From contig LBYF01000001.1 of the NCBI GenBank assembly GCA_000996025.1, positions 3,507 to 67,506 of the forward strand: a stretch of DNA of 64,000 nucleotides, in the 5' to 3' direction. The notes beneath the pieces are model-generated. The model saw only the letters and a list, made by a program, of their open reading frames with translations. It searched no databases and had not been told where the DNA came from. Below are positions 2,426 through 26,935 of the stretch, in pieces. The DNA is from Parcubacteria group bacterium GW2011_GWA2_40_14 (GTDB taxonomy: Bacteria; Patescibacteriota; Minisyncoccia; Phycocordibacterales; DATDWN01). Both the position numbers and the translations under genes were made by a program. Each line of letters starts with the position of its first letter. Within the stretch, counting starts at the first letter, position 1.

Positions 2426-2429
2426 TCTA

Positions 2430-2470
2430 AAAACTTGCTAACACTGGGTGTTAGCAAGTTTTTAGATTTA
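2430..2470. repeat. Family-6 hairpin with conserved ACACTGGGTGT loop; bidirectional terminator between tig and the upstream minus-strand gene
   Basis: The sequence gctaacactgggtgttagc is flanked by A and T runs, and the same loop recurs at 26868-26935. Confidence 0.6.
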
Positions 2471-2505
2471 GAACTGCAAACTTTTTAAATCTTTTGACTT
2501 ATCTC

Positions 2506-2772
2506 TTACTCTGCTTCTGGGCTAAGGTTCGTAGTGTTTGTGCTACTTAAGTCTGCCTCTATTGAGCCCAGGTCATCTGACGAACTCATGCTTTTTATTG
2601 TTGCCGCTTCAGAAATATCTGCTGTCGGCTCACTACCGCCCCCGACTAAATTTTGAGCTGTTTTTGATTCCTCAATTCGCTTGCCCCAGAAATATAGTCC
2701 GCCGAGGATAATCAAAGCGATGATAACGATTGTGCCCACGATAGAGCCGATTGATGATTTGTTTTCTTCCAT
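2506..2772 (-). CDS. Small membrane protein (one TM, Ser/Asp-rich tail)
   Basis: The 88-aa ORF has a hydrophobic segment IVGTIVIIALIILGGLYFW. No family was recognised. Confidence 0.35.
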   Translation of the reverse strand: MEENKSSIGSIVGTIVIIALIILGGLYFWGKRIEESKTAQNLVGGGSEPTADISEAATIKSMSSSDDLGSIEADLSSTNTTNLSPEAE

Positions 2773-2806
2773 GGTGTTTGGTTAATTTTCAATTTTTAAA
2801 CAATTT

Positions 2807-3517
2807 TTAATTTTGTACTTTTGTTTCTGTTTTCACAGTAGTAGAAACTCCTTTCAGACTACCAACTGCTTTTTCTAGAGATTTGCGAGCGCTCCCCAAA
2901 TTTTTCTCAATATCTTTCGCTATTTTAGCCAAAGCGGAGAGAGAGACTTTTGCTTGTGCTCTGGTTGTTGTTGCATTTTCTAGAGCGACTGTCGCCTCTG
3001 CAGTTGTTTTGAGACTGATAAGTAAAACTTTTGCCGCCTCAAGTGATACTTTTGCATCATTAACATATCTTTCAGCAACTAGAATATCTCCTCCGGCATT
3101 TTTTATTTTTTCAATTCTACTCTGAACTCGGACTACAAGCCCTTCTAGTCGTTCAATAGTTGCTTGAAATCTCGCATTCATCTTTTCAAAACGATTTTCC
3201 ACCCTTTCTCTTAATTTCTCTATTCTCTTTTCTTCAATTTTTCCTTTTACCTCCTCTTTTCTCTCTTTTATATCACTTTTTGCCTCTTCTCGCCTATCTT
3301 TTATTTCACCCTTAGCTTCTATTCTTATAGCTTTGACATCCGCTCTTGTTTCTGTTCGAATTTCCTTTTTACCTTCAATTAATGCTTTTAACCTTGGTAA
3401 TAATTTTTGTTTTGTTTCCACCGTTACATTTGTATCCGTATCTGTTTCTGCATACGCAAATCCTGCGCTGGATAAAACAAGCATGGCAATTAATGTTTTT
3501 AGTATTATATGTTTCAT
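2807..3517 (-). CDS. Secreted coiled-coil protein (signal peptide plus K/E-rich heptads)
   Basis: MKHIILKTLIAMLVLSSAGFAYA looks like a signal peptide, and the rest is a charged repetitive coiled-coil-like sequence. Confidence 0.5.
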   Translation of the reverse strand: MKHIILKTLIAMLVLSSAGFAYAETDTDTNVTVETKQKLLPRLKALIEGKKEIRTETRADVKAIRIEAKGEIKDRREEAKSDIKERKEEVKGKIEEKRIEKLRERVENRFEKMNARFQATIERLEGLVVRVQSRIEKIKNAGGDILVAERYVNDAKVSLEAAKVLLISLKTTAEATVALENATTTRAQAKVSLSALAKIAKDIEKNLGSARKSLEKAVGSLKGVSTTVKTETKVQN

Positions 3518-3656
3518 TTGTTTTGTTATTATAATTTATTACCAGAACTTATCTGGCAGTAGCTCCATTATACAGTAAAAAGCCACTGTCTACAATAAGC
3601 AAGGGCTTTCATAACAAAAGAGGACTAAAGCCCTATTTTACTTGATAGTCTAGTTT

Positions 3657-4241
3657 TTACTCAAAATTCTTTAGATAGATATCTTTGTATCTTTGTTTAC
3701 ATTCCTCGATAACCTTGATAGCTTCATCTTTATCAAAAAAACCCTTGGTAATACCTGCACCAGGTTTTTTTAGGTATTTAATGTGTTCCCAGTAATAAGT
3801 GGTTTCTTTTTTGAATTGTTCGCCCAGGTCTTCAACTGACTGGATGTGGTCACTTCTTCGATCATCTGCAAGCACGGCGATTATTTTGTCGTCAACTTCT
3901 CCAGCATCTTCAAACTTCATAACTCCAATGATTCGAGCTTCAACTAAACACCCAGGTACAAGTGGTTCCATAACATTTACAATTTCAACATCAAGAGGAT
4001 CATTATCATAGTCCCAAGTTTGTGGGATTGCTCCGTAAGCAAAAGGGCAAGCAAGAGAGGAGTAACCAACCCGGTCAAGTTTTAACTGTCCTGATTCGGT
4101 TACGGTCTCGTATTTGTTTATAGTACCAGAATTAATCTCAACAATTGCGTTGACTCTATCTGATTGTTCGTCTACAAAAGCCGGTAGGACATGCAACAGA
4201 TTGAGCATGTATTTTGAAGGTTTGTGATTTATGTTTGCCAT
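3657..4241 (-). CDS. ppa: Inorganic pyrophosphatase (family I)
   Basis: The 194-aa ORF carries PPase-like motifs (PLDVEIV, IIAVLADD). Confidence 0.85.
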   Translation of the reverse strand: MANINHKPSKYMLNLLHVLPAFVDEQSDRVNAIVEINSGTINKYETVTESGQLKLDRVGYSSLACPFAYGAIPQTWDYDNDPLDVEIVNVMEPLVPGCLVEARIIGVMKFEDAGEVDDKIIAVLADDRRSDHIQSVEDLGEQFKKETTYYWEHIKYLKKPGAGITKGFFDKDEAIKVIEECKQRYKDIYLKNFE

Positions 4242-4255
4242 ACTGATTGATTATA

Positions 4256-5491
4256 TTATTTTTCTTCCTTAATTTCAACAGGAGTTTCTTCAACCTTCTC
4301 TTCTTTTATTTCACCTCGAGGATTTGTGGACTTTATATCTATTTTCCACCCAGTCAGTTTGGCCGCCAGCCGGACATTTTGTCCACCTTTGCCTATAGCC
4401 AAAGATTGCTGGTCTTCGGAAACAGTGACGCTTGCTTGTTTTTCTGTCTCATTTATTTCTACAGACAATACTTTGGCAGGGGACAGAGCATCTTCTATAA
4501 ATTTCTTAGGGGCTTCCGACCATTCAATAATATCTATTTTTTCTCCACCAAGCTCGGACATGACAGTAGAAACACGAACACCGCGCCCACCGACCATAGA
4601 GCCGACAGGGTCAATATGAGCATCTTTGGACGTCACGGCTATTTTTGTCCGAGAGCCGGCTTCACGGGCAATAGACTTTACAACCACAGTGCCATTGGCA
4701 ATCTCTGGTGTTTCTGTTTCAAAAAGTTTTTCTAAAAATTTTGGATGTGAACGAGAAAGTCGCAAAAACACTCCTTTGCTAGAGTCTTCCACTCGATAGA
4801 GATAGGCCCGGACACGCTCGCCTTGAGCAAATCGCTCTCCCGGAATCTGTTCTTCGTACGGTAATATACCTGGGGCACGACCCATATCTATGAAAATATT
4901 TCCTCGCTCCATTCTTTGTACTGTGCCAGAGACAATTTCACCTTCTTTCTTGCCATACTCACTGACAATATGTATTTTCTCGGCCTCGCGAATTTTCTGC
5001 ATGATAACTTGTTTGGCGGTTTGAGCGGCAATGCGACCATAGTCTCCTTGCGATTCCAGAGGGAAAACCATTTCATCACCCAAGGCAATATCTTTTTTGA
5101 TGCGTCGAGCATCGCTTAACATAATATGATGTTCGGGGTTATAGAGTTCAATTTCGGCATCGGGCGTCCCGGTGCCGATGTTGCCTTCTGCTCCGACGAC
5201 GTCACTTTTGGCCTTTTGGGACTTGCTGCCAAAGGCAGGTTCAACGTCGGCATCGGGACGCTCTGTCATAAAGACAGTATTTTCATCCACCACAATTTTA
5301 ACCTGAAACATTTCAGTTTTTCCGGTATTGAGGTCAAATTTTGCTCGCACAATCTGGCCTTTCTTGCCATATTCTTTTTTGTAGGCAGTTGCCAAAGCAA
5401 GCTCAATGGCTTCTATTATTTTTTCTTTTGGAATCCCGCGCTCTTCTTCAAGTTGGGTTAGCACAGAATTTACTACTTTTAGATCAATCAT
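4256..5491 (-). CDS. nusA: Transcription termination/antitermination factor NusA
   Basis: The N-terminal domain, S1 and KH regions are recognisable (MIDLKVV...QLEEERGIPKE), with a K/E-rich C-terminal tail. Confidence 0.9.
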   Translation of the reverse strand: MIDLKVVNSVLTQLEEERGIPKEKIIEAIELALATAYKKEYGKKGQIVRAKFDLNTGKTEMFQVKIVVDENTVFMTERPDADVEPAFGSKSQKAKSDVVGAEGNIGTGTPDAEIELYNPEHHIMLSDARRIKKDIALGDEMVFPLESQGDYGRIAAQTAKQVIMQKIREAEKIHIVSEYGKKEGEIVSGTVQRMERGNIFIDMGRAPGILPYEEQIPGERFAQGERVRAYLYRVEDSSKGVFLRLSRSHPKFLEKLFETETPEIANGTVVVKSIAREAGSRTKIAVTSKDAHIDPVGSMVGGRGVRVSTVMSELGGEKIDIIEWSEAPKKFIEDALSPAKVLSVEINETEKQASVTVSEDQQSLAIGKGGQNVRLAAKLTGWKIDIKSTNPRGEIKEEKVEETPVEIKEEK

Positions 5492-5500
5492 ACAAATAAG

Positions 5501-5540
5501 TTTATAAAGTTATAAAGTTTGTAAAGTTCATAAAGCTAAT
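5501..5540. repeat. Family-2 repeat (GTAAAGTTATAAAGTT words), partial copy upstream of nusA
   Basis: The sequence gtttataaagttataaagtttgtaaagttcataaagc recurs at 37634, 38802 and 56755. Confidence 0.6.
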
Positions 5541-5624
5541 TTTGATAAAAAGAATGTCCGCTCCCATGAGCGAACTTCAATGCACCTATACTATCATAAG
5601 CTCTATAGTCTTGTCAACAAAACA

Positions 5625-5672
5625 AAAAAAGAAAAACCCACCTAAGTCTTGCAAAGCAAAACTTAGGTGGGT
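5625..5672. terminator. Hairpin terminator between the convergent or divergent ends of nusA and the Clp-type ATPase
   Basis: The stem cccacctaagt...acttaggtggg is preceded by an A-run, which gives a T-run on the minus strand. Confidence 0.55.
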
Positions 5673-5698
5673 CCAATCCCAATGTTCAATCGGAAAGT

Positions 5699-6772
5699 TC
5701 ATAACGACACAGAGGTTCCCATCTCTTTGGAAAAGAGCATTTTGTCTACCGATTTTGCCAGATCAACCTTGATGATGTCGCCCAGGCCAATCTGTCCTGT
5801 GGCAATCAAATTGGAAAGTGGATAGACCAAAAACTTTTCGATCGCTCGCTTCAAATGACGCGCGCCATACTTTAGGTCCGTTCCTTGACGAAGCAGGAAT
5901 TCCTTGGCTTCTCCTGTGCATCTGAAGATGAACTGTTTGCCGGACTGCGACGCCAGGATGCGGTTCTGAACGTCGTTGAGTTCGATGTCCAGGATCTGCC
6001 TGAGGTGTTGTTGATTCAATGTGCGGAACACCACGACCTTATCGAGTCTGTTCATGAACTCCGGCGAAAACTTGCGCTTCGCCACTTCGAGAGCAGTGCG
6101 GTACATCTTCCGGTCGATATCGGCCAGATTGGATTCATCGGTCCGTACACCGGACGTGAATCCGATTCCGCCGGTCAGCATTTCACTCATCTCAACCGCC
6201 CCGAGGTTGGATGTCATGAACACCACGCATCGCGACAAGTCCACCTTGCGGTTGTCGCCTAAGGTGAGCGTGGCTTTATCCAGAATACCCAAGAGAAGCT
6301 GCCACAGCGCGTTATTGGCCTTTTCGATTTCGTCGAAGAGTATGAAACTTAACTTGCAAGTATCGGTCTGGTACTGATCAATTGCCCCCTGCGTCAAAAT
6401 CGGCGGAGTTTCGCGGTGTCCCAGATAGCCCGGAGGCGATCCGATGAGTTTCGCAATCTCATGGCTGTGCTGAAACTCGGCGCAATCGAGCTTGATAAAT
6501 GCCCGGGGGCTACCAAACAGGATTTCCGCGGAAGCTTCGACAACTCTGGTTTTTCCGGAACCGGTCGGTCCCAAAAACAGGAGGTTACCAATGGGACGAT
6601 TGGGCTGTGCCATACCTACCAGATAGACTTGGTACATGTTCACAATTTGACGAACTGCGCGATCCTGACCAATGATTTTGTTCAGCAGACCCTGTTCAAA
6701 GTCCAAGATTTCGTTGCTTTTTCTATCGGGGTTTAACACTACTTCTTCAGACTTTTTCATTACAGGCTTCAT
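5699..6772 (-). CDS. Stand-alone Clp/Hsp100-family AAA+ ATPase, D2 domain only
   Basis: Walker A (GPTGSGKTR), the sensor region and GSPPGYLGH are present, and the sequence aligns with the ClpB/ClpC second nucleotide-binding domain. It is noticeably more GC-rich than its neighbours and has a strong SD (aaaggagagact ATG). Confidence 0.8.
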   Translation of the reverse strand: MKPVMKKSEEVVLNPDRKSNEILDFEQGLLNKIIGQDRAVRQIVNMYQVYLVGMAQPNRPIGNLLFLGPTGSGKTRVVEASAEILFGSPRAFIKLDCAEFQHSHEIAKLIGSPPGYLGHRETPPILTQGAIDQYQTDTCKLSFILFDEIEKANNALWQLLLGILDKATLTLGDNRKVDLSRCVVFMTSNLGAVEMSEMLTGGIGFTSGVRTDESNLADIDRKMYRTALEVAKRKFSPEFMNRLDKVVVFRTLNQQHLRQILDIELNDVQNRILASQSGKQFIFRCTGEAKEFLLRQGTDLKYGARHLKRAIEKFLVYPLSNLIATGQIGLGDIIKVDLAKSVDKMLFSKEMGTSVSL

Positions 6773-6914
6773 AGTCTCTCCTTTGGATTAAAGCAGACAT
6801 TTAGAATTTGAAACACTATCAAAAAACAATCTGATTTACTTATAATATATTTACGAAAAAATATCAAATCAGAGTTTATCTGTTCTTATTCACACAATTT
6901 CGTGCCGGAGGAAG

Positions 6915-7015
6915 AATATTTTGATATACTAGATACGAAGTAACGAATAAGTTAACGAATTGCAACGAATAGAATCCATTCGTAGCCATTCGTGTTTTAA
7001 TTCGTTACTTCGTAT
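6915..7015. repeat. Family-1 palindromic repeat (TACGAA/TTCGTA words); abuts the pilB start codon
   Basis: This copy is the reverse complement of the copies at 491-572 and 8884-8967, and it ends ...cgttacttcgtatATG. Confidence 0.75.
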
Positions 7016-8785
7016 ATGCATATTGAAGAAAAACAATTAAAAGATTTTATTTTGGACTCGGGGCTTGTCTCGCGGGCTGACTTAACTCTGGCTGAAAAAG
7101 AAGGTCTGGAAAAGGGAGTAAGCTTGGGCAAAGTTTTGGTGAGCAAAGGAAAGCTTTCAGAAGATGATTTACGACGGATGCAGGCCTATATTCTGGGTAT
7201 TCCTTTTGTGGACCTCAAGGGCGAGAAATTGCCATTTGAAGTTCTCTCTCTTATTCCGGAGCCGATTGCTCGCAATCACAATATTGTAGCTTTCAAGAAA
7301 ACAGACTCTAGTTTGGAGGTAGCTATGTTAGACACCGAGGATTTGACTGCCATTGATTTTATCAAAAAGAAAGTAGGCCTCCGAATTTTACCTCGCTTGA
7401 CCGATGCCGACTCTGTCAAAAGCGCAATCCTCCAATATCAAAAGTCTCTCAAGGCGGAGTTTGGCGATTTAATTGCCAAGGAGGTTTCGTCACTTGAATT
7501 GAATCCGCTGAAACGAAGTGAAGGCGATGAAAACGAGGTCATAACTACGACAGAAGATTTGAAAAAAATGGCCGATGATGTGCCTGTGGTGCGCATAGTG
7601 GATACATTGCTGAAGCATGCCATTTTGCAAAACGCATCCGACATTCACATAGAGCCGCAGGAGCTGGAACTTCTGGTTCGCTATCGTATTGATGGCTTGC
7701 TTCACGATGCCATGCTCCTGCCGAAAAATGTGGGAGCATCCATTGCCGCTCGTATCAAAGTTTTGGCCATGCTCAAGCTTGATGAAAAGCGTTTGCCACA
7801 GGACGGCAGATTCAAAATTGACATGAATGGCGAGAAAGTTTCTTTTCGTGTTTCCACCTTGCCGACATATTATGGTGAGAAAACAGTTATGCGACTCCTC
7901 CGCGAAAATGTTTCCGGCTTTACACTGGAATCCCTCGGTTTTCATGGTGTGGGACTGGAGCGTATTCACAGAGCCGTCCAATCCACGACCGGCATGATAC
8001 TGGCTACCGGCCCGACTGGTTCTGGAAAAACCACCACTTTGTATACTATTTTGGATATTTTAAATACTGTTGATGTCAATATTTCCACAATTGAAGACCC
8101 AATAGAATATCAGATGAAGCGTATTAACCAAACTCAAGTTCGTCCAGAGATAGGATTAACATTTGCAAACGGATTGCGCACTTTGGTTCGCCAAGACCCG
8201 GATATTATTATGGTCGGTGAAATTCGTGACAATGAAACGGCTAATCTGGCTATAAATGCGTCGCTCACCGGTCATGTCGTTCTCTCAACACTTCATACAA
8301 ACTCTGCCGCCGGAGCCGTCCCTCGCTTGATAGATATGAAAGTGGAACCGTTTCTTATTGTTTCCACTGTTAATGTTATTATTGCCCAGCGTCTTATCCG
8401 AAAACTTGGAGATGGAAAAGAAAAATATTTTTTGACCAAAGCCGAGCTTCTAACTTTGGGCAAGAGAGTTAATTTAGACAAAGTCTTAGCTACTTTGAAG
8501 GAAGAAAAAATTGTAGGTCAAAGCGATGTTTGGGAACAAGTTCCTTTTTGGCGCCTGAAAAAGAATGTTTCATCCGAAGACGGTTTCTCCGGACGCATTG
8601 GCATTCACGAAATATTGAAAGTTTCTTTGCCAATAAAAGATATTATTCTCAAAGACGGCACCTCGGACGCAATCCAAAAACAAGCTGAAAGCGAAGGTAT
8701 GCTGACTATGTTTGAGGACGGCATCTTCAAAGCGGTACAAGGTGTAACCACCATTGAGGAAGTTCTTAGGGTTATCTCGGAATAG
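7016..8785 (+). CDS. pilB: Type IV pilus / type II secretion assembly ATPase PilB/GspE
   Basis: The ORF has an N-terminal GspE-N domain, Walker A GPTGSGKTTT, and Asp and His boxes. Confidence 0.9.
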   Translation: MHIEEKQLKDFILDSGLVSRADLTLAEKEGLEKGVSLGKVLVSKGKLSEDDLRRMQAYILGIPFVDLKGEKLPFEVLSLIPEPIARNHNIVAFKKTDSSLEVAMLDTEDLTAIDFIKKKVGLRILPRLTDADSVKSAILQYQKSLKAEFGDLIAKEVSSLELNPLKRSEGDENEVITTTEDLKKMADDVPVVRIVDTLLKHAILQNASDIHIEPQELELLVRYRIDGLLHDAMLLPKNVGASIAARIKVLAMLKLDEKRLPQDGRFKIDMNGEKVSFRVSTLPTYYGEKTVMRLLRENVSGFTLESLGFHGVGLERIHRAVQSTTGMILATGPTGSGKTTTLYTILDILNTVDVNISTIEDPIEYQMKRINQTQVRPEIGLTFANGLRTLVRQDPDIIMVGEIRDNETANLAINASLTGHVVLSTLHTNSAAGAVPRLIDMKVEPFLIVSTVNVIIAQRLIRKLGDGKEKYFLTKAELLTLGKRVNLDKVLATLKEEKIVGQSDVWEQVPFWRLKKNVSSEDGFSGRIGIHEILKVSLPIKDIILKDGTSDAIQKQAESEGMLTMFEDGIFKAVQGVTTIEEVLRVISE

Positions 8786-8790
8786 ACGAA

Positions 8791-8826
8791 GACTTCCAAA
8801 TCTGGCGCATTTCGTTGTTGGAAAGC
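8791..8826. repeat. Family-5 motif (GACTTCCAAATCTGGCG...GTTGTTGGA) immediately after the pilB stop
   Basis: The same words follow the tuf stop at 31221. Confidence 0.6.
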
Positions 8827-8883
8827 AAAAAATAAATCTTATACACAATTTTTGTGAAAATAAAATAAAATTTTGGTACAATA

Positions 8884-8967
8884 AACATACGAAATAACGA
8901 ATTAAAACACGAATGGCTACGGATTATTCGTTGCAATTCGTAGACCCATTCGTTACTTCGTATATTT
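8884..8967. repeat. Family-1 palindromic repeat; abuts the pilC start codon
   Basis: The copy ends ...cgttacttcgtatatttATG. Confidence 0.75.
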
Positions 8968-10182
8968 ATGTTATTTCATTACAAAGCACTGGATAGTACA
9001 GGGAAAGAGGTTGAGGCAAATCTGGAAGCCAAGGACAGGTTTGCTCTGTATCATGCCGTAAAAAAAGATGGCAATACAGTTATCTTTACAGAGGAAGTCA
9101 AAGCCAAAGGAAGATTTTCCTTGATAAAACTTTTACCATTTTTGGATAATGTTACAGCCCATGACAAAATAATTTTTGCCAGAAATCTTTCCAAAATGAT
9201 TCTGGCCGGTCTGCCCATTACTCGGGCCCTCTCTATTATGGAGAGGCAAGCCCGCGGCGGATTAAAGTCAGTTTTGAAAAATTTGAGTGAATCGGTAGGA
9301 AAAGGCACTACACTTTCCGAATCAATGAAAAATTTTCCAGATGTTTTTTCAACCCTTTTTACTTCAATGGTCCGAGCTGGAGAAGAATCAGGGAATTTGG
9401 CAACTAGCTTGGAGAATGTTGGTATGCAAATGGAGAAAACATACCAGCTTAATCGTAAAATACGCGGAGCAATGCTCTATCCGGCCATTATTCTGCTACT
9501 GATGGTCGCTATAGGTATTCTGATGATGGTTTATATGGTGCCGACATTAACTGCCACATTTATCGGTCTCAATTTAGACCTGCCGGTTTCTACACGCATT
9601 ATCATTTTTGTCAGTAATTTTCTAGCCGGTTATTTTACATTTTTTATTTTGGGAGTTGTGGTGACGACTGTCCTCCTCGTTTTTGCTTTTCGTAGCGACC
9701 AAGGGAAACGACTTTTAGAGGCGTTTCTTCTTCGCCTACCTATTATCGGAGAAATAGTAAAGGAGATTAATTCAGCGCGGACGGCCCGAACATTATCCTC
9801 GCTTCTTTCTTCGGGGGTGGATATTGTCTTGGCAGTCGGAGTGACAAAAGATGTCATACAAAACTCCTATTACAAAAAAGTTTTGGAAGAAGTGCAGATT
9901 AATATTCAAAAAGGAGAGGCCATCTCATCAGTTTTTTCATCTCATATTGATTTATATCCTATTTTTGTCGGGGAAATGGTAAATGTGGGAGAGGAAACGG
10001 GTAAAATAGCCGAAATGCTTAGCAATGTTGCTTTATTTTATGAGGAAGAAGTAGACCAAAAGACAAAAGATATTTCCTCTTTGATTGAACCGTTTTTGAT
10101 GATTTTTATTGGTTTGGCAGTTGGATTTTTCGCCATGGCGGTTATTAGCCCTATCTACTCATTAGGGGACTCCATACAATGA
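8968..10182 (+). CDS. pilC: Type IV pilus inner-membrane platform protein PilC/GspF
   Basis: There are two GspF repeats with TM segments. The stop overlaps the next start (ATGA). Confidence 0.9.
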   Translation: MLFHYKALDSTGKEVEANLEAKDRFALYHAVKKDGNTVIFTEEVKAKGRFSLIKLLPFLDNVTAHDKIIFARNLSKMILAGLPITRALSIMERQARGGLKSVLKNLSESVGKGTTLSESMKNFPDVFSTLFTSMVRAGEESGNLATSLENVGMQMEKTYQLNRKIRGAMLYPAIILLLMVAIGILMMVYMVPTLTATFIGLNLDLPVSTRIIIFVSNFLAGYFTFFILGVVVTTVLLVFAFRSDQGKRLLEAFLLRLPIIGEIVKEINSARTARTLSSLLSSGVDIVLAVGVTKDVIQNSYYKKVLEEVQINIQKGEAISSVFSSHIDLYPIFVGEMVNVGEETGKIAEMLSNVALFYEEEVDQKTKDISSLIEPFLMIFIGLAVGFFAMAVISPIYSLGDSIQ

Positions 10183-10643: not shown

Positions 10644-10669
10644 GGAGTCTATAATACAATTTATATACA

Positions 10670-11158: not shown

Positions 11159-11160
11159 AC

Positions 11161-11670: not shown

Positions 11671-11701
11671 GGAAAAATTTCTAATTTCTAATTTTTAAAT
11701 A

Positions 11702-13000: not shown

Positions 13001-13021
13001 TCCCGTGTTACAATAAAACTC

Positions 13022-14943: not shown

Positions 14944-15042
14944 TTTTGGACTATAGATTGACATATTTTTTGGTTTCGTTACACTTAATAAGTTGAACTG
15001 TTTAACAGTTGAACTTTATAGTAATCATAATACGCATATTTT

Positions 15043-15327: not shown

Positions 15328-15354
15328 TGAAAGCAATTTATAAATCCTTATCAT

Positions 15355-15759: not shown

Positions 15760-15821
15760 GGGAAAATAATAGCATATCTCAGTTGTTATTCACTATTTCG
15801 GACTGTGGTAGACTGATACCT

Positions 15822-17645: not shown

Positions 17646-17678
17646 TTAACCCTTGACCACACTAATCTTTCTGATAAT

Positions 17679-17722
17679 ACACATACGTTAACTTCTTGCT
17701 ATAGCAAGAAGTTAACGTATGT
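17679..17722. repeat. Perfect 19-bp-stem palindrome with GCTATAGC centre (family-7-like) after recJ
   Basis: The sequence is cacatacgttaacttcttgctatagcaagaagttaacgtatgtg. Confidence 0.6.
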
Positions 17723-17768
17723 GGGTCTAAGAAGTTATTTATTGTGGATTGCCGTGTATAATGATGAA

Positions 17769-18449: not shown

Positions 18450-18523
18450 TTTGCATATGTATTCAAGAAACTCAATTATAATTTTGGCACAGTATATTGT
18501 ACCAAAATAGAAATATTAAACTC

Positions 18524-19999
18524 ATGATTATTTCAAGTATTTTTGGTTTTATTTCAGGTATTGGCGTGGGTTCATTTTTTTATATCAATCTCGGAATTTT
18601 TCTTGCCCTCGGGTTTTTGATAATAATATTTTTTATATATAAAAATTTTGTTCCTGAGGAAAATCGTCGTGTTTTAGTTTTTATTTCCATTTTTCTTCTA
18701 GGAACACTCTGTGGATTAGCTAGAGTAACATTTTCCAATCTTTATACCACATCGCAACTCGGTTCATTTGTAGAACAGAAAATTTCTACGGAGGGTATTA
18801 TCGTCGGTGAGCCGGATGTTAGAGAAAACAATACAAAATTGACCGTGCGTTTGTCGCAAGTTAATTTTTTAAATAGCACTACTTCTGTTTCAGAGAAAAT
18901 ATTGGTAACCACATCTCTGTATCCAGAATTTCATTATGGCGACAAAGTTGCAATAGTTTTAACTTTGAAAGAGCCAAAAAATATAGATTCTGGCGATGGA
19001 CATGTCTTTGATTATAAAGGGTATCTGAAAGTCAGGGGAATTTGGTATACAGCCAGTTTTGTCAAAATAAGCCTTATTTCTAGGGGCCATGGCAGTTTGA
19101 TTAAAACGGGATTATTCAAAATAAAGCACGCATTTACGGCTTCATTAAATAGAGTATTGCCCGAGCCAGAATCCAGTCTCATGGCAGGATTACTTCTCGG
19201 TACAAAACAATCTTTGGGCAAAGATTTACTTCTGGAATTTCAGAAGACGGGTGTGTCACATATAATTGTGCTTTCTGGTTACAATATTGCCATTGTGGCA
19301 ACAAGCATTATGTCTTTTTTGAGTTTCTTGCCGAAAAGTTTTTCTTTCAGTTTTGGAATTGGCAGTATTATTTTGTTTACTATTCTCTCTGGAGGAAGCG
19401 CTTCAGCATGGCGAGCGGCTATTATGGTCATGGCCGCTCTTGTAGCCAAAAGATATAACCGCGATTACAAAGCCAGTCGCGTACTCGGCTTTGCTATCGT
19501 GCTTATGCTTGCTCCCAACCCACTCCTTCTTATTTTTGACCCATCATTTCAACTTTCAGTGTTGGCTACTATCGGAATTATTTTTGTTTCACCTCTTATT
19601 TTCCCATATTTTAAATGGGTAACAAAAAAATGGGAGTTCCGAGAAATTATTTCCACCACCATCGCCACTCAATTAACCGTCCTGCCATTTCTTATTTACA
19701 ATACAGGTCTTTTCTCTCTTGTTTCTCTGCCGGTGAACATTTTAATTCTTGCTACCATACCCACAACAATGTTTCTCGGTTTTATTACCGGTATCGCTGG
19801 TTTAATTTCACTTTATCTATCTTTCATCCCGGCATTTTTTGCTTATATTCTCCTCTGGTATCAGCTCACAGTCGTCCACATTGGAGCTAGCCTACCTTTC
19901 GGCTCAATTCTTCTCGCCACATTTTCTCCACTCGTTTTAATTTTCACCTACTTAATAATTTTCCTATTTTTGTATTTTCTAAAAAAGCAAACTATTTAA
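18524..19999 (+). CDS. comEC: ComEC/Rec2 competence membrane channel protein (N-terminal and transmembrane part only)
   Basis: It is polytopic with a ComEC-like core; no beta-lactamase domain lies in the same ORF. The track ORF begins at a TTG at 18497. Confidence 0.7.
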   Translation: MIISSIFGFISGIGVGSFFYINLGIFLALGFLIIIFFIYKNFVPEENRRVLVFISIFLLGTLCGLARVTFSNLYTTSQLGSFVEQKISTEGIIVGEPDVRENNTKLTVRLSQVNFLNSTTSVSEKILVTTSLYPEFHYGDKVAIVLTLKEPKNIDSGDGHVFDYKGYLKVRGIWYTASFVKISLISRGHGSLIKTGLFKIKHAFTASLNRVLPEPESSLMAGLLLGTKQSLGKDLLLEFQKTGVSHIIVLSGYNIAIVATSIMSFLSFLPKSFSFSFGIGSIILFTILSGGSASAWRAAIMVMAALVAKRYNRDYKASRVLGFAIVLMLAPNPLLLIFDPSFQLSVLATIGIIFVSPLIFPYFKWVTKKWEFREIISTTIATQLTVLPFLIYNTGLFSLVSLPVNILILATIPTTMFLGFITGIAGLISLYLSFIPAFFAYILLWYQLTVVHIGASLPFGSILLATFSPLVLIFTYLIIFLFLYFLKKQTI

Positions 20000-20441
20000 A
20001 GTATTTGCTGAAGTAGTCTTTACAGTACTCAAAACTATATTGAAATCCAGAATGTAATGGTTCTGGTAAGTTATCTATTTTAAACCAACCAAGCTCTTCA
20101 ATTTTATGAGGCTCATTATTTTTTACTTCATCTCAATTTACTTTGATGATAAACGGCATTGCAATCCAGTGAGTTTTTACACCGTTGAACATTCTAAAAA
20201 TATCATGTGCGGGAAGGCGCTCTGAAATCTCTCCTTTGCACCCGTATTCTTCCCGCACTTCTTGGAGAACATTTTCCTCGACTAAAAGATTAAATTCTAG
20301 TTTTCCTCCACCCGGATCCCATTTTCCTTGCTCATCCCTACACTGCAGACCTCTTTTGTGCATGAATAGATTTCCTTCTCCATCGTGGCAATAGAATGGA
20401 GTTGTGATACCAACATAGTCGTATCCAATTTTCATATCCAT
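19992..20441 (-). pseudogene. NUDIX hydrolase interrupted by an in-frame TGA at 20133-20135
   Basis: The upstream part has the Nudix box GGGKLEFNLLVEENVLQEVREEYG. After the TGA the same frame continues for 46 codons with NUDIX-like sequence (DEVKNNEPHKIEELGWFKIDNLPEPLHSGF...) to a TAG at 19992. Confidence 0.55.
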
Positions 20442-20443
20442 AC

Positions 20444-21046
20444 TTATTTTGCTACACTGTTAAAATTCTCCTCAACCTTCTTCCAATTCAGATTTGCAAA
20501 AAAATCTTCAACGTATTGTTTCTTGCCAGATGGTTGGTAGTCGGCGACAAAGGCGTGTTCCCACATATCTAAAGCGAGTATCGGAGTGCATCCAACGAGC
20601 TGGCCGAGCTGATGGTCTTCAATGTAGGCGTTCAGTAGTCTGTGTTCTTTTGTATCTAGGTAGAGCATTGCCCAGCCTACTCCGCGAGTCATGGCGATTG
20701 ACTTGAACCTCGCAAGCCAAGTGTCAAATGAACCCCATAGATAGACAATTGATTTATATAATTCTCCGTCTGGTGAAATGGGAGATGGTCCGTCGGACAG
20801 AGAATCAAAATAAACTTCATGATTTCGCATACCGTCATATTCAAATCCAAACCTTCTCTGTGTTTCGTTGATAATGATAATATATGTATCCGTCTGGCCG
20901 GATTTTGTGAACTCATCGATTTTTTCCAAAGCAAAATTGGTATGTTTGACATATCCCGCATAGAGCTTCAAATGTTCCTCAATTGTCTTGCTCGAAACTC
21001 CTTTTAATTCGGGGATATTAAATTTTTTCTCTTCAAATTGCATCAT
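20444..21046 (-). CDS. sodA: Fe/Mn superoxide dismutase
   Basis: The DMWEHAF motif and the N-terminal helical hairpin H-x-x-H are present. Confidence 0.9.
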   Translation of the reverse strand: MMQFEEKKFNIPELKGVSSKTIEEHLKLYAGYVKHTNFALEKIDEFTKSGQTDTYIIIINETQRRFGFEYDGMRNHEVYFDSLSDGPSPISPDGELYKSIVYLWGSFDTWLARFKSIAMTRGVGWAMLYLDTKEHRLLNAYIEDHQLGQLVGCTPILALDMWEHAFVADYQPSGKKQYVEDFFANLNWKKVEENFNSVAK

Positions 21047-21094
21047 AGTAGTTTTTAAATTTTAAATTAAAAATTTTCCTATATACTATAGCAT

Positions 21095-22006
21095 ATGAGG
21101 CAAATTTTTCTGAATGTTCGGACTTATCTACGATGGTATGCTCTCATTTTTCTAGTATTTTTTAGCGTCATTTTGTGGTTTGCTGTAATCCACGAAGACA
21201 GAAATGGGATTTTGACTTTTGCTGTTCTGGATGTTGGCCAAGGCGATGCCCTTTTTATTGAATCTCCCACGGGTACGCAGGTTTTGGTGGATGGCGGTCC
21301 CGGCAAAACCCTTATGCGAGAAATAACCGCTGTCATGCCATGGTATGACAGACATATAGATATGTTGGTTGTAACCAATCCGGACAAAGACCACTACGAG
21401 GGATTCATACCTCTTACGGGCAAATATTCTATTGATGTAGTGGTTGAACCGGGAACAGTATCGCTAACTTCGGAGTATGCAGTGTTGGAAAAAGAAATTG
21501 CTGTGAAGAAAATAACCAAAATTTTGGCCAGACGAGGACAAATAATAGACCTCGGTGGAGGAGCGTATTTGCAAATCCTTTTTCCTGACCGTGACGTTTC
21601 CGGATTATCCTCAAATAACGGCTCAATTGTTACGCGTTTAGTTTATGGCCATACATCCGTTATCTTACAGGGCGATTCTACTTCAAATATAGAGAATTAT
21701 CTAGTTACACTAGGGGAGGGTAACTTAAAAAGCACCATACTCAAAGCTGGTCACCACGGCTCGCGGACAAGTACATCGGAAGAATATGTTACAGCGGTTT
21801 CACCGCTGTGGACGGTTATTTCTTCTGGGATAAATAATAGTTACGGACATCCGCACAAAGAAACGTTGGACACTTTGAATAAATTAAAAATCCCCACGCT
21901 CGATACTTGTAATAATGGCAGAATCATTTTTGAATCGGATGGCAAAAGTTTTATTCTGAAAAATAAAAATCCTATTCTCGCGATATCTGGATGTGTTAAG
22001 AAATAA
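21095..22006 (+). CDS. Membrane-anchored metallo-beta-lactamase-fold protein resembling the ComEC C-terminal domain
   Basis: There is an N-terminal TM and a LDVGQGDA...H.GSRTS MBL-type motif set, as in the ComEC nuclease domain. Confidence 0.65.
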   Translation: MRQIFLNVRTYLRWYALIFLVFFSVILWFAVIHEDRNGILTFAVLDVGQGDALFIESPTGTQVLVDGGPGKTLMREITAVMPWYDRHIDMLVVTNPDKDHYEGFIPLTGKYSIDVVVEPGTVSLTSEYAVLEKEIAVKKITKILARRGQIIDLGGGAYLQILFPDRDVSGLSSNNGSIVTRLVYGHTSVILQGDSTSNIENYLVTLGEGNLKSTILKAGHHGSRTSTSEEYVTAVSPLWTVISSGINNSYGHPHKETLDTLNKLKIPTLDTCNNGRIIFESDGKSFILKNKNPILAISGCVKK

Positions 22007-22023
22007 AATTTTCATATAATAAA

Positions 22024-22072
22024 ATCATACACGTTCTTTGCGATCGCAAAGAACGTGTATGATTTTATTATG
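22024..22072. terminator. Perfect 22-bp-stem palindrome centred on GCGATCGC between the convergent MBL gene and rpmB
   Basis: The sequence is aaaatcatacacgttctttgcgatcgcaaagaacgtgtatgatttt. Confidence 0.6.
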
Positions 22073-22089
22073 AGTAAAACGTGGGAGTT

Positions 22090-22332
22090 CTAAATAAGGT
22101 CGGCTTTTTTGAGAGTAGCAAAAGCGCCGTTTTTCTGGATGGTTTTGATGCCACGAGCAGAGAGGGTCAGTGTCATTGACTTTTTCAGTTCAGGAATGTA
22201 GATCTTCTTTTTTTGAAGATTTGCGTATTTACGCTTCATTCCCGTGGGGTTGAACTGGGTTGCACGAGTGCGGTTTGAGTATCCACCTTGCAGTTGGGAA
22301 GATTTCCCAGTTATGATACATACTTTAGCCAT
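22090..22332 (-). CDS. rpmB: 50S ribosomal protein L28
   Basis: MAKVCIITGKSSQLQGGYSNRTRATQFNPTGMKRK is typical of L28. The start was moved to the internal ATG. Confidence 0.8.
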   Translation of the reverse strand: MAKVCIITGKSSQLQGGYSNRTRATQFNPTGMKRKYANLQKKKIYIPELKKSMTLTLSARGIKTIQKNGAFATLKKADLI

Positions 22333-22445
22333 AGTGTTTACGACTTCCAAATTTGGCGAACTCCTTGCTAAAATCTGAAAAATTCTCGTCACCGTACATG
22401 AGTACGACTCCTCGCTTTTTTCAGATTTTCACTTCGGATTTCATC
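22333..22445. repeat. Family-5 element forming the rpmB 5' leader (CGCCAAATTTGGAAGTC motif 10 nt upstream of the ATG)
   Basis: It shares a GTCACCGTAC..GTACG hairpin core and CCAAATTTGG terminal words with the copies at 31221 and 43411. Confidence 0.65.
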
Positions 22446-22507
22446 CAAATTATGAAAGTCTTGAATATATAATAATATCCGCGTTATGGTATCATAGAAT
22501 TATAAAT

Positions 22508-23122
22508 ATGCAAATTGATTTTATATTTTCCATTTTGATACTTATTTTTTCTGTCATTGTCCATGAGGTTTCTCACGGGTTTGCGGCATATTTGCAAGGC
22601 GACAATACGGCAAAATTTGCTGGACGATTAACCCTAAATCCCCTCAGTCATTTGGAATGGTTCGGTTCCTTCCTCCTGCCAGTCATGTCCTATTTTCTCG
22701 GAGGGTTTATTATTGGCTGGGCAAAACCGGTGCCGTTTAATCCATACAATTTACGCAACCAAAGATGGGGAGAATCCATTGTAGCTTTTGCTGGACCGGC
22801 TGCAAATATTTGTTTAGCTCTAATCTTCGGATTGCTTATTCGTTTTGGAGTTTTGATTCAGTTTGGTGAAGCTTTTGTCCAAATAGCCGTTATGATTGTT
22901 TTTATAAATCTTATCCTTGCTACATTTAATCTCATTCCCATACCACCACTGGACGGTTCCAAAATCCTTTTTTCTGTTTTGCCAAATAGTTTACTTGAAG
23001 TCCGTTCGTTTCTAGAAAGAAACAGTATATTTATTTTAATTTTCTTTATCTTTTTCCTCTGGCAATTTATTTTGCCTCTCGTATCTCTTGAATTTTCTCT
23101 CATTACTGGATTTGCCTTGTAA
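22508..23122 (+). CDS. Site-2 protease family (M50) zinc metalloprotease
   Basis: HEVSHG (HExxH) lies within a TM helix, and the protein is polytopic. Confidence 0.75.
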   Translation: MQIDFIFSILILIFSVIVHEVSHGFAAYLQGDNTAKFAGRLTLNPLSHLEWFGSFLLPVMSYFLGGFIIGWAKPVPFNPYNLRNQRWGESIVAFAGPAANICLALIFGLLIRFGVLIQFGEAFVQIAVMIVFINLILATFNLIPIPPLDGSKILFSVLPNSLLEVRSFLERNSIFILIFFIFFLWQFILPLVSLEFSLITGFAL

Positions 23123-23180
23123 AATAAAGCTTTTTGGTGGGTTAGAAAAGAAAATAGAAAAATTGCTTGATTTTCAATGT

Positions 23181-23216
23181 CATCTCATACGATATATCGT
23201 ATGAGATGAAGTTTTG
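23181..23216. repeat. Family-7 perfect palindrome (catacgatatatcgtatg)
   Basis: The sequence is tctcatacgatatatcgtatgaga. Confidence 0.55.
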
Positions 23217-23264
23217 CATTTTGTTTGCAATTTTTTTCTATACACCACGAGCTTAAAAGACTTT

Positions 23265-23400
23265 CAGATTTGAGACAAGGTCGCGTATAAAATGCAAAAG
23301 AGAAGCGGAGGCGTACTTAGTGGTACGACGAGCATCACTTTTGCATTTTAGACGATGAGATTGGCCAAATGTGGAAGTCAAAAACCACACGGTTGCAATA
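23265..23400. promoter_or_regulatory. rpsL leader: 12-bp-stem hairpin (aaaatgcaaaag...cttttgcatttt) plus a GATTGGCCAAATGTGGAAGTC family-5 motif
   Basis: The same 14-mer gagattggccaaat occurs in the rplT leader, and related motifs occur in the tuf, rpmB and rpmC leaders. Confidence 0.55.
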
Positions 23401-23429
23401 TTGGTACATATGTATTACCATTGCAACCA

Positions 23430-23843
23430 ATGTCTACGATAAATCAGTTAGTCCGTCACAAGCGAACAAAAGTTAAAGTTAAGCCGCGAGCAGTGGCTCT
23501 TACTCGCGGATTTAACAATCTGACAAACCGTCCGGTTTTTTATCCTGCTCCATTCAAACGAGGGGTTTGCACAAAAGTAACAACAAAGACTCCAAAGAAA
23601 CCAAACTCTGCTATACGAAAGATTGCCCGTGTTCGTCTGACAAACGGCATGGAAGTGACAGCTTATATTCCGGGTATGGGACATACTCTACAAGAGCACT
23701 CTGTGGTTTTGCTTCGAGGCGGAAAGGTGAAAGATGTCGGTGTACGTTATACTATTGTCCGAGGGATGTTAGACGCGACTGGGGTAGAAAAGAGAATGAA
23801 GGGGCGAAGCCGTTACGGTGCCAAGAGACCGAAAGGCAAATAA
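23430..23843 (+). CDS. rpsL: 30S ribosomal protein S12
   Basis: [12 protein letters not shown]...[10 protein letters not shown] is S12-like. The start was moved to the internal ATG. Confidence 0.9.
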
Positions 23844-23936
23844 TCGAGACACGAGTACCGAGATACGAGAAACGAAGAAAATAAATGCATTCATAATCGT
23901 AATTCGGGTCTCGTAACTCTTAACTCTATCAAAAAG
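23844..23936. repeat. Family-3 palindromic repeat (CGTAACTCT words) between rpsL and rpsG
   Basis: The arms are cgagacacgagtaccgagatacgag...cgtaattcgggtctcgtaactcttaactc, and the copy ends 10 nt before the ATG. Confidence 0.7.
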
Positions 23937-24425
23937 ATGAGAAGAAAAGTCATAAACAGAAATATAGTTGGAAAAGATATTGAGTTCAACTCGGAAAAAG
24001 TTGGCAAATTTATTAATTATGTTATGGAAAGGGGTCAGAAAGAAACTGCGCGAAAAATTGTTTACGACGCATTTGAAATAATAAAAGATAAGGCGTTAGC
24101 TACGAAAGAAGCTACGATCGCGGATGCGCTTGAAATTTTTGAAACAGCTTTGAAAAATACGGGACCTTTGACAGAAGTTCGTTCACGAAGAGTTGGTGGG
24201 GCCAACTATCAGATTCCTCGTGAAGTTCGCCCAGAGAGACGAGTTTTCCTTTCCATGAAATGGATTATTGACTCTGCTCGCGATGGCAAGGGCAAGCCAA
24301 TGGCAAAAAAATTGGCAGATGAAATTATTTTAGCAAGTAAAAATGAAGGTAAAGCTGTTAAAAAGAGGGAAGATACGCACAAGATGGCGGAGGCCAATAA
24401 GGCCTTCGCCCATTTTGCATGGTAG
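23937..24425 (+). CDS. rpsG: 30S ribosomal protein S7
   Basis: The 162-aa ORF is typical S7 (GKKETA..VGGANYQIP). Confidence 0.9.
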   Translation: MRRKVINRNIVGKDIEFNSEKVGKFINYVMERGQKETARKIVYDAFEIIKDKALATKEATIADALEIFETALKNTGPLTEVRSRRVGGANYQIPREVRPERRVFLSMKWIIDSARDGKGKPMAKKLADEIILASKNEGKAVKKREDTHKMAEANKAFAHFAW

Positions 24426-24620
24426 TTTTTCTGGTCTTTTTGCCGAATTTCTTTGCTCTCGGTTTTGCCTGCTCCACGCAACGTACTGCTGTACGTTTTG
24501 GTCACAGTCAAAACCTGCGATCTTCGAAATTCAACAAAAATCCTCACAAAAACTTACAACTTTGACCTTTGCGAAAAATCCTCGGACCGAAAATATTCTC
24601 AACATCTGAATTTAACTAGG
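24426..24620. repeat. Degenerate family-5-like element in the rpsG-fusA spacer
   Basis: It contains an acgtac..gtacgt hairpin and a ggtcac word. This is the weakest match in the family. Confidence 0.35.
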
Positions 24621-24715
24621 CAAGACCTAGTCATATATTATAGATTGCTCAAAAAGGTGTTTTAGTATATAGTCTTATCTATTCTTATCCGAGAGGATTT
24701 TTTATTTTATAAACG

Positions 24716-26857
24716 ATGAATAGAGATTACACATTAGATAAAGTCAGAAATTTTGGAATCATAGCCCACATTGATGCGGGTAAAACAACCACATCTGAAC
24801 GCGTTTTATTCTATACAGGGATGACTCACAAAATCGGTGAGGTGCATGAAGGTGAAACGGTTACTGATTGGATGGATCAGGAGCGCGAGCGCGGAATTAC
24901 TATCACGGCTGCGGCCATTACCTGCTTCTGGAATAAAACGGATACAGAGAAAAAACCTGACAGCATGTATCGTTTCAATATTATTGACACTCCTGGTCAC
25001 ATTGATTTTACTGCAGAGGTTAAACGCTCGCTTCGCGTACTTGACGGGGCAGTAGTGGTTTTTGACGGTGTTGCCGGGGTTGAACCACAATCAGAAACTA
25101 ACTGGCGATATGCAGATGACGGAAATGTTCCAAGAATATGTTTTATAAACAAACTTGACCGAACAGGAGCTTCTTTTGAGCGTTCATACGCATCTATTTT
25201 AGACCGATTAAATAAAAATGCCGTACGTATGCAGATTCCGATGGGTTTGGAAGATAAGTTTGAGGGTGTTATTGACCTTTTAAAAATGAAAGCATACTTT
25301 TTTGAAGGAAATATGGGAATAACCATACGAGAGGAAGAAATTCCAGCTGAATTTCTAGAAGAAGCGAAAAAATACAGAGCAGAACTGATAGAGAAAATAG
25401 TGGAGCAGGACGACAAGATGATGGAGGCGTTTCTAGAAGGCAAGGAGCCATCGTTTGAGGATTTGAAAAAAACTTTGCGCAAAGCAACTCTGGCGGTAAA
25501 AATTATTCCTGTTTTTGCCGGTTCTGCACTGAAAAACAAAGGCGTTCAGCTTGTCCTTGACGCAGTGGTGGATTACCTGCCATCTCCTGTTGATATGCTT
25601 CCGGTTTGCGGACTTGACCCAAAAACAGGCGAGGAGATTTTCCGTAAGCCATCAGACGAAGAGCCATTTTCTGCTCTGGCTTTCAAACTCCAAAACGACC
25701 CGTTTGTTGGGCAGCTGACATTTTTCCGTGTCTACTCCGGAACGTTAGAAGCTGGAACATATATATACAACTCAACAACGGGCGAGAAGGAACGCCTTGG
25801 ACGTATTGTTCGCCTCCAGGCAGACAAACGTGAGGAGGTCAAAAAAGTTTTCTCTGGAGAAATCGCTGCGGCAGTGGGATTAAAGAGCGCAAAAACTTCT
25901 CACACTCTCTGCGATGAAGACAAACCGATTATTCTAGACCCAATTAAATTTGTGGACCCTGTCGTCTCTTTGCGTATTGAACCAAAAACAAAAGCTGACC
26001 AAGAAAAAATGGGTATGTCACTCAAAAAACTTGGAGACGAAGACCCCACCTTTGTTATTTCCTCAAACAGCGAAACAGGTGAAAGTATTATTTCCGGAAT
26101 GGGTGAATTGCATTTGGAAATTATGGTGGAACGTTTGAAACGAGAGTTTGGGGTAGAAGTAAATGTCGGCAAACCACAAGTGGCATATAGAGAAACAATT
26201 TTGGGTACTGCAGAAGCGGAACATAAATACATAAAACAAACAGGAGGCAAAGGACAATACGGACACGTCAAACTGACACTGAAGCCTTTGGAGAAAATTG
26301 AAGAAGGAAAAAAGATTCCAAAGAACACACATAGATACGAGGATTTTGAATTTATTGACTCAATAAAGGGAGGGGTTATTCCGCAAGAATTTATTCCGGC
26401 TGTAGAAAAAGGCGTACATGAGGCCATGGACCGGGGAATTGTGGCCGGATACAAAATGGTCAATGTATCCTGCGAGCTTACCTACGGTTCTTATCACGAC
26501 GTGGACTCATCGGAAATTGCATACAAAATTGCCGCTTCGCAGGCATTTCAAGATGCGGCAAAGAGAGCTCGTCCTGTTATCCTTGAGCCGATTATGAAAG
26601 TGGAAGCAATCATGCCGGAACAGTTCATGGGAGACATCACTGGTTCGCTTTCTGGAAAACGAGGTCAGATAGAAGGTATGGATGAACGTGGAATGCTCCG
26701 AGTTATACACGCCAAAGTGCCTCTGTCTGAAATGTTTGGCTATACCACAGACATCCGTTCAATGACCCAAGGTCGCGGTTCAGTCCAAATGGAATTTGAC
26801 CACTATGAGGTGGTGCCACCGAACGTGGCTACAACAATTATAGAATCAAGAAAATAA
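24716..26857 (+). CDS. fusA: Elongation factor G
   Basis: The 713-aa ORF has the G1 motif AHIDAGKTT and all five EF-G domains. Confidence 0.95.
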
Positions 26858-26867
26858 CATAAATTTT

Positions 26868-26935
26868 AAAAACTCTACAGACACTGGGTGTCTGTAGAGT
26901 TTTTTGCTAACACTGGGTGTTAGCAAGTTTTTAAT
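26868..26935 (+). terminator. Tandem pair of family-6 hairpins (both with an ACACTGGGTGT loop) after fusA
   Basis: Each of ctctacagacactgggtgtctgtagag and gctaacactgggtgttagc is followed by a T-run. Confidence 0.65.

Follow-up and report, generated by a model that had tools for sequence, protein, structure and literature searches.

The hairpins that follow fusA and a small open reading frame (ORF) near the left end of a 64,000-nt stretch of Parcubacteria group bacterium GW2011_GWA2_40_14 (contig LBYF01000001.1; the whole stretch is here called the window) are, with high probability, members of a repetitive extragenic palindrome (REP) family; they belong to a REP/RAYT (REP-associated tyrosine transposase) system in a Zambryskibacteria-like Parcubacteria genome, and locally appear to serve as terminators. 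The window hairpins share their sequence with palindromes flanking a RAYT-like gene of the same genome; copies of the palindrome are dispersed in the genome and co-diverge with the transposase. Palindromes bracketing a RAYT-like gene, together with dispersed copies, form the arrangement termed a REPtron (PMC6006769). The elongation factor G (EF-G) encoded in the window shows 100% identity with its counterpart in Parcubacteria group bacterium GW2011_GWF2_39_8b, which comes from groundwater and belongs to the Candidate Phyla Radiation (CPR), near Candidatus Zambryskibacteria. A preliminary description of the window had proposed that its recurrent hairpins have a function beyond simple termination; this proposal was borne out in part, since the hairpins belong to a family of palindromes that is scattered over the genome and linked with a transposase-like gene of the Y1/HUH type.

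Hairpins in the Window

The 11-mer ACACTGGGTGT was found at exactly three sites in the window, all on the plus strand (2441-2451, 26881-26891, and 26910-26920); with one mismatch allowed, 0.35 matches would be expected, and three or more matches appeared in 0 of 100 shuffles. A looser pattern, ACACNNNGTGT, recovered the same three sites and no others. Every 11-mer lies in the middle of a perfect inverted repeat that is followed by a T-run, as the preliminary description had stated, yet the 11-mer is not the loop that it was taken for; since ACAC pairs with GTGT, the true loop is the triplet TGG, closed by a 4-bp stem. The stems had been described as different, which is true of copy 2 alone; a stretch of 30 nt (TTGCTAACACTGGGTGTTAGCAAGTTTTTA) is the same in copies 1 and 3.

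Copy 1 contains the canonical REP core ACTTGCTAACACTGGGTGTTAGCAAGT at 2433-2459 and has the same sequence as the palindromes on either side of the organism's RAYT-like gene; an A5/T5 tract on each side places a T5 run on both strands, the form of a bidirectional intrinsic terminator. It is located between two minus-strand genes, after the stop codon of the ORF at 2506-2772, as had been claimed, and upstream of tig rather than after it (Table 1); any transcript of it would therefore be the complement, ACACCCAGUGU, with the loop CCA and not UGG. Copy 2 (CTCTACAGACACTGGGTGTCTGTAGAG) begins 11 nt past the fusA stop codon and is followed by a T6 run; it shares the tip and the foot ACT...AGT with the canonical REP and differs in the middle stem. 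Copies 2 and 3 form a directly oriented pair with unlike stems and identical tips, including the asymmetric TGG, 29 nt apart. RNA folding gave -35.2 kcal/mol for the tandem pair after fusA (z -7.8 against shuffles) and -33.5 kcal/mol for the minus-strand transcript of copy 1 (z -8.5). The transcribed strand thus shows the form of an intrinsic terminator, a stable stem-loop with a U-run just past the stop codon. Fuzzy DNA and peptide matching detected no decayed copies inside the ORFs of the window.

Table 1. Location of REP copies and of genes and signals next to them; numbers without prefix are window positions, and L numbers designate sequences outside the window.
Feature	Location	Strand	Remarks
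REP copy 1	2424-2468	.	45-nt perfect palindrome, 21-bp arms, plus-strand loop TGG
REP-like variant, copy 2	26868-26904	+	17-bp arms, 3-nt loop, AAAAACTCTACAG-ACAC-TGG-GTGT-CTGTAGAGTTTTT
REP copy 3	26903-26932	+	canonical TTTGCTAACACTGGGTGTTAGCAAGT, perfect arms 26904-26926 (10 bp, 3-nt loop), plus T5 run 26928-26932
tig (trigger factor)	1529-2386	-	285 aa as called in public records; downstream of copy 1 on the minus strand
88-aa ORF	2506-2772	-	no Pfam match; stop codon 38 nt from copy 1
fusA (EF-G)	24716-26857	+	713 aa; gene followed by tandem hairpins
Promoter-like TTGCGA-17-TACAAT	26935-26963	+	site of next gene (852-aa ORF, 26970-29528)
In-frame REP in pyrG	L186:7051-7073		
In-frame REP in infB	L183:8360-8382		
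In-frame REP in rsmA	L188:6082-6104		
In-frame REP in topA	L198:8140-8162		
In-frame REP in uvrA	L201:120-142		
In-frame REP in methyltransferase gene	L182:5114-5136		
In-frame REP in ruvC	L195:7350-7378		
In-frame REP in recG	L174:5462-5484		

A RAYT-like Gene Bracketed by the Palindrome

In L195 (= L189), two mutually inverted palindromes at 3235-3261 (TGG) and 3976-4006 (CCA) surround an ORF at 3273-3974; the flanking sequence is ACTTGCTAACAC-TGG/CCA-GTGTTAGCAAGT, and the palindrome around the transposase gene reads ACTTGCTA-ACAC-TGG-GTGT-TAGCAAGT. By exact look-up, the 233-aa product of this ORF is KKR31544.1 of GW2011_GWF2_39_8b, adjoining the MurJ protein KKR31543.1. KKR31544.1 matches the Pfam family Y1_Tnp (PF01797) with 26.9 bits at a cut-off of 23, and its HUH motif (N-H-F-H) and Y147 are invariant across 34 homologues. 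Sequence searches of the PDB were weak, and the comparison had to be made by fold. With an AlphaFold model (pLDDT 92) of a homologue that is 81% identical, the top Foldseek match in the PDB was 4ER8 (E 3.5e-5), the REP-associated tyrosine transposase of E. coli in complex with a REP hairpin, followed by the TnpA proteins of IS608 and ISDra2. The gene order MurJ-RAYT-LepA is common to three species, being present for the 81%- and 79%-identical orthologues, and is consistent with vertical inheritance of the RAYT gene.

In L180, which represents a related species, a distant RAYT homologue (32% identity) has sod and a lactamase_B gene as its neighbors. The palindrome CCCAAAGGAGWCTCCTTTGGG (2909-2930, 3228-3251, and 3632-3655) flanks it, and one copy lies in frame within the RAYT gene itself, directly past the HUH motif.

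Dispersed Copies in the Species

A metagenome scan for the 19-mer GCTAACACTGGGTGTTAGC returned 22 stretches, most of which were contigs of 38-41% guanine-plus-cytosine (GC) content carrying (A)ACTTGCTAACAC-TGG-GTGTTAGCAAGT(T) in new contexts, often without a T-run; the contig Ga0209542_10002027 contains the 19-mer yet was not among the 22. The 38-41% GC contigs comprise nine distinct further loci, whose encoded proteins match the same species. Searches with tip and stem added two more, one in ruvC with a variant stem and one in recG that is decayed, which brings the copies outside the window to at least 11 and the known copies in the species to approximately 14 (three in the window, nine 19-mer loci, ruvC, and recG). 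Stem and tip are both shared by 11 copies, and the tip alone by copy 2 and by the ruvC copy (AACTTGCGC-ACAC-TGG-GTGT-GCGCAAGTT), which is far from any other copy; the recG copy is old and decayed, and has kept the stem and lost the tip.

Eight of the approximately 14 copies are located in frame in ORFs (Table 1), where they encode LLTPSVSK (CCA strand), LLTLGVSK (TGG strand), or variants of these peptides. The pyrG insert is absent from PyrG orthologues (81-86% identity) and from solved CTP synthases; similarly, the RuvC protein of a sister species (87% identity) is without the insert and has its own 13-residue insert from another palindrome. Most copies outside the window are thus found inside ORFs or flanking the transposase gene, and the suspected link of the hairpins to highly expressed genes found no support. 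In the sister-species ruvC (L203:4792-4826), the palindrome is a perfect one of 35 nt, CATTAACTACGGAGGC-GTT-GCCTCCGTAGTTAATG, and its 13 residues are absent from RuvC of the window species.

Some matches to the 19-mer were set aside as probably coincidental palindromes, in contigs of 49% and of 68-73% GC, because a hairpin with an 8-bp stem leaves only 11 positions free. At three loci of a high-GC organism (L184:3126-3144, L192:1190-1208, and L197:3270-3288; 68-73% GC), the 19-mer tips a 53-nt perfect palindrome, GTTATGAGGGGAACCCTGCTAACACTGGGTGTTAGCAGGGTTCCCCTCATAAC, which may represent coincidence or a related family. Approximately 2.5 kb upstream of the window start, a terminator at L170:4190-4225 (AAAAAACACCCACTGGGTGTTTTTT) has 10 of 11 tip bases; its centre is shifted by one base, with the stem ACACCC/GGGTGT and the loop ACT, and this match (L170:4203) was not counted as a member, being a hairpin in another register.

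Co-divergence of Palindrome and Transposase

RAYT orthologues, which were fetched without reference to the motif, are flanked by palindromes of the same design. An 81%-identical RAYT is accompanied by ACTTGCTC-ACAC-TAC-GTGT-GAGCAAGT and AATTTACGC-ACAC-GTA-GTGT-GCGTAAATT, a 79%-identical RAYT by ACTTGCAG-ACAC-GAC-GTGT-CTGCAAGT, and a 70%-identical RAYT by ACTTTTCC-ACAC-TAG-GTGT-GGAAAAGT. Across ten distinct sequences from four RAYT lineages, the tip pairs ACAC/GTGT are invariant (4/4), and 8 of 9 lower-stem pairs have changed on both sides; the loop triplet varies from lineage to lineage (TGG, TAC/GTA, GAC, and TAG). More distant homologues have palindromes of their own: TGTAGACAT-GGA-ATGTCTACA at 59% identity (3-nt loop, five copies in 15 kb), TGTGGATAT-CAG-ATATCCACA at 50% (3-nt loop), and CCCAAAGGAG-WC-CTCCTTTGGG at 32%. 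Inverted flanking palindromes surround the RAYT orthologues in L203, L204, L206, and L208; the REP of the sister lineage L204 matches the upper stem of copy 2 (CAGACAC/GTGTCTG).

The notion of a conserved loop on a variable stem therefore has a true core at the level of the family but needs to be rephrased: the base pairs of the tip are conserved across lineages, whereas the loop triplet varies, most copies of the same species share the stem, and the recG copy has lost the tip. Since the tip pairs are invariant across lineages, a tip-specific protein partner is a reasonable inference, and in this form the earlier suggestion of loop-specific binding is plausible; a loop function at the RNA level is unlikely because the copies lie either way round with respect to transcription.

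The fusA Spacer in Strains and Relatives

The tandem pair after fusA is kept in 10 of 10 near-identical strains. In L178 and L179 (EF-G 93-94% identical), a single terminator, unrelated in its stem and its loop, stands between fusA and the same promoter, TTTTTAATTGC...TACAAT; in L180 (EF-G 92%), the motif is absent after fusA, and one long unrelated inverted repeat is found there. The promoter (Table 1), kept in relatives right after their single terminator, marks the edge of the changed region. The window spacer thus contains one hairpin more than its counterparts, and neither hairpin is like theirs; of the two flanks of the ancestral terminator site, the left one borders copy 2 and the right one copy 3. 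Either copy could be the newcomer.

An alternative history, which concerns copy 2 alone and is compatible with a REP origin elsewhere, is that copy 2 represents the ancestral fusA terminator, its tip overwritten with that of the adjacent copy 3 through template switching or gene conversion from one hairpin to its neighbor. Its position at the left flank of the ancestral site and a lower stem unrelated to the canonical REP would fit this account, as would the 11-nt tip, which agrees with that of copy 3, TGG included, in the same orientation and only 29 nt away. Yet the foot of copy 2, ACT...AGT, is that of the REP, its upper stem is the one seen in the L204 REP, and the ruvC copy provides a second stem variant with the same tip at a place remote from all other copies. 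Overwriting of the tip is accordingly regarded as improbable, although it deserves to be considered for this copy.

The REP reading would assign copy 2 the role of the first fusA terminator, and copy 3 likely that of a second, back-up terminator; both assignments are likely. Termination at this site is consistent with the relatives, since they have a terminator at the same position. Gene order from fusA to tuf is kept in relatives as well; between the two genes (26970-29837), the window contains the 852-aa ORF, without Pfam match, and a 99-aa DUF5663 ORF, and the large ORF at this place ranges from 852 to 1234 aa.

Terminators, RNA Sites, or DNA Signals

The simplest competing explanation holds that the hairpins are ordinary Rho-independent terminators which came to share a tip by local duplication or chance, without any transposase-linked family. 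All three window copies do have the full terminator form and stand at gene ends, and unrelated bacteria, too, have the 11-nt tip in terminators that occur singly. A search of one genome from each of 185,579 species for the pattern A4-N6-9-core-N6-9-T5 yielded 39 matches in scattered taxa, one per genome, including about a dozen true terminators; such a number of single matches is at chance level because a hairpin tip of this kind has few free positions. The scan output did not include the window's own species; window-like stretches were apparently masked in the collections. No genome of the 185,579 species had multiple copies or a family of the hairpin tip, which does not appear to be a widespread recurrent motif. 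Against ordinary terminators speak the recurrence of the identical 23-27-nt palindrome in the same species at nine or more further loci, mostly without a T-run and six of them in ORFs, and its position on both sides of a Y1 transposase gene; we consider this explanation very unlikely. In viral contigs, the 19-mer was not found, and a pattern of core plus T-run gave at least 120 chance-like matches that were uninformative.

An equally slim probability is given to the view that the tip acts in RNA, as a protein-binding site or an RNA-RNA pairing site in highly expressed transcripts. Its invariance in three terminator-like window hairpins and the conservation of its base pairs across lineages could be read in this way; however, copy 1 would be transcribed as the complement with a CCA loop, the two RAYT flanks are mutually inverted, the copies in frame within genes are found in either orientation, sister lineages do not share the loop triplet, and an Rfam search of the window matched the hairpins to no family, tmRNA (transfer-messenger RNA) being the single family found. 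Finally, some other DNA-level signal that favors terminators (an uptake sequence, or a restriction-modification or recombination site) is considered exceedingly improbable: the genome does encode ComEC (18497-19999) and the tip contains CACNNNGTG, a palindromic type of site, but a DNA uptake sequence would be expected in hundreds to thousands of copies rather than approximately 14, the window shows no enrichment of the 7-mer TGGGTGT (7 occurrences vs. 4.5 expected), no other genome has multiple copies, and the association with a Y1 transposase accounts for the data without such a signal.

Proposed Mechanism and Its Caveats

The palindromes of the proposed REP/RAYT system are perfect hairpins of approximately 27 nt, with the foot ACTT/AAGT, a variable middle stem, the invariant tip ACAC/GTGT, and a loop of 3 nt, which in this species is TGG. 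The RAYT-like protein is predicted to bind the hairpin in single-stranded DNA, probably via the tip, and would cut and join it and in this way spread copies. Copies that came to rest at gene ends, flanked by A- and T-runs, would work as intrinsic terminators once transcribed. At fusA, the tandem pair would stand in for the ordinary terminator found in relatives; in the spacer between ORF 2506-2772 and tig, copy 1 could act as a bidirectional terminator that ends the transcript of ORF 2506-2772. Since the repeat is also present without T-runs and inside ORFs, termination is a local use and not its defining feature.

As a caveat, several observations weigh against this interpretation. The 5' guide tetranucleotide GT[AG]G is absent, and the foot is (A)ACTT in all copies. 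In E. coli, TnpA-REP makes its contacts with the hairpin foot and with the GTAG guide (PMC3479197), a precedent that therefore gives no backing to recognition of the tip; atypical REPs without GT[AG]G have been described for TnpA-Y1 subclass 2.6 and class 3 (PMC6006769). KKR31544.1 scored 23.4 bits against the NCBIfam RAYT equivalog NF047646, far below the cut-off of 80; the RAYT sequence alone found nothing in the PDB, and a profile reached only E ~0.1 to ISDra2, so that the protein must be distant from characterised RAYTs. REPIN doublets were not found in the window, and the other copies are singletons except for the RAYT-flanking pair; a total of approximately 14 copies is few for a REP family. 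Among the ten near-identical strains, none was found to lack a copy, and recent mobility is therefore not demonstrated. Termination at fusA and at ORF 2506-2772, for its part, is suggested by structure only.

A wider proposal would be that domesticated Y1 transposases specific to CPR bacteria read the tip of a perfect hairpin (ACAC/GTGT plus triloop) and not a GTAG guide, and that, in a genome with hardly any space between genes, their REPs persist mainly as in-frame inserts of 6-8 codons in housekeeping and DNA-repair genes, and are also recruited as terminators of core operons, such as fusA. This proposal is put forward tentatively; it may be correct but is rather less likely than not.

Relation to Known Systems

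The resemblance to REP/RAYT systems (E. coli TnpA-REP with Y and Z REPs, Pseudomonas REPINs) comprises a short dispersed palindrome with inverted copies around a Y1/HUH gene, co-divergence of palindrome and transposase, a gene that stays between the same neighbors in related species, and copies at gene 3' ends with occasional in-frame genic copies; intragenic REPs, notably in DNA repair genes, are known from other bacteria (PMC3733652, PMC6006769). In contrast to these systems, the Parcubacteria palindromes are perfect hairpins with a 3-nt loop instead of imperfect hairpins, without the 5' GT[AG]G guide, and conserved at the tip rather than the foot; copies are few, REPIN doublets were not seen, more than half of the known copies are intragenic, the 233-aa protein falls below the NCBIfam RAYT cut-off, and the host belongs to the CPR/Patescibacteria. 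With the TnpA proteins of IS200/IS605 elements (IS608, ISDra2), the RAYT-like protein shares the Y1/HUH fold and hairpins at both gene ends, and by analogy recognition of hairpins in single-stranded DNA would be expected; unlike these elements, it has no tnpB partner, it occupies one conserved chromosomal place in three species instead of occurring in many variable copies, and its flanking hairpins are also dispersed alone, without the gene.

Rickettsia palindromic elements (RPE) likewise occur in frame in housekeeping genes and add a short peptide in tolerated loops, and the pyrG and ruvC inserts described here are similarly absent in close relatives; yet RPE are 100-150 bp long, whereas the palindromes of the window species measure 23-27 nt and add approximately 6-8 residues, and the window copies are intergenic. 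Rho-independent terminators, including bidirectional ones, have in common with the window hairpins a stable stem-loop and a U-run right after the stop codon, as well as the symmetry that copy 1 owes to its upstream A-run; they differ in that they are not a dispersed repeat found also without T-runs and inside ORFs.

To our knowledge, nearly all work on REP/RAYT systems has concerned Proteobacteria, and our literature search found no paper that links RAYT or REP elements with CPR bacteria. A reduced Parcubacteria genome with a small, clean REP family and its own RAYT-like gene offers a simple system in which to ask what the transposase recognises, given that the tip and not the foot is the conserved part here; how palindromes last in a genome with little non-coding DNA, where more than half of the copies are genic and in frame; and how mobile palindromes become terminators. 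For annotation, a REP origin accounts for the recurrent 8-residue inserts LLTPSVSK and LLTLGVSK in unrelated CPR proteins, and it serves as a warning that identical terminators need not be regulatory motifs.

Additional Features of the Window

With ARAGORN, the window yielded neither a tmRNA nor a tRNA; the tmRNA found with Rfam (76.9 bits) lies at 61444-61842 on the minus strand and adjoins smpB (61920-62363, minus strand). The ORF at 60243-61340 has a TTG start.

Further palindromes that are long and perfect, centred on TATA or GATC, were found at 17680-17723, 22016-22071, 23180-23209, 31761-31798, and 40268-40313, those at 31761 and 40268 having ATACACCTATCA in common; similar TATA-centred palindromes occur in L195 (7510-7562) and L204 (9250-9281), and they may constitute a second palindrome family. 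Two families of repeated intergenic sequences, ACGAAT-type units and AAAGTTATAAAGTTTGTAAAG-type units, are both located upstream of genes, at a first set of sites (495-560, 6930-7010, 8887-8950, and 36069-36100) and a second one (5499-5530, 37634-37690, 38799-38860, and 56759-56835); these repeats may be shared promoter or regulatory elements.

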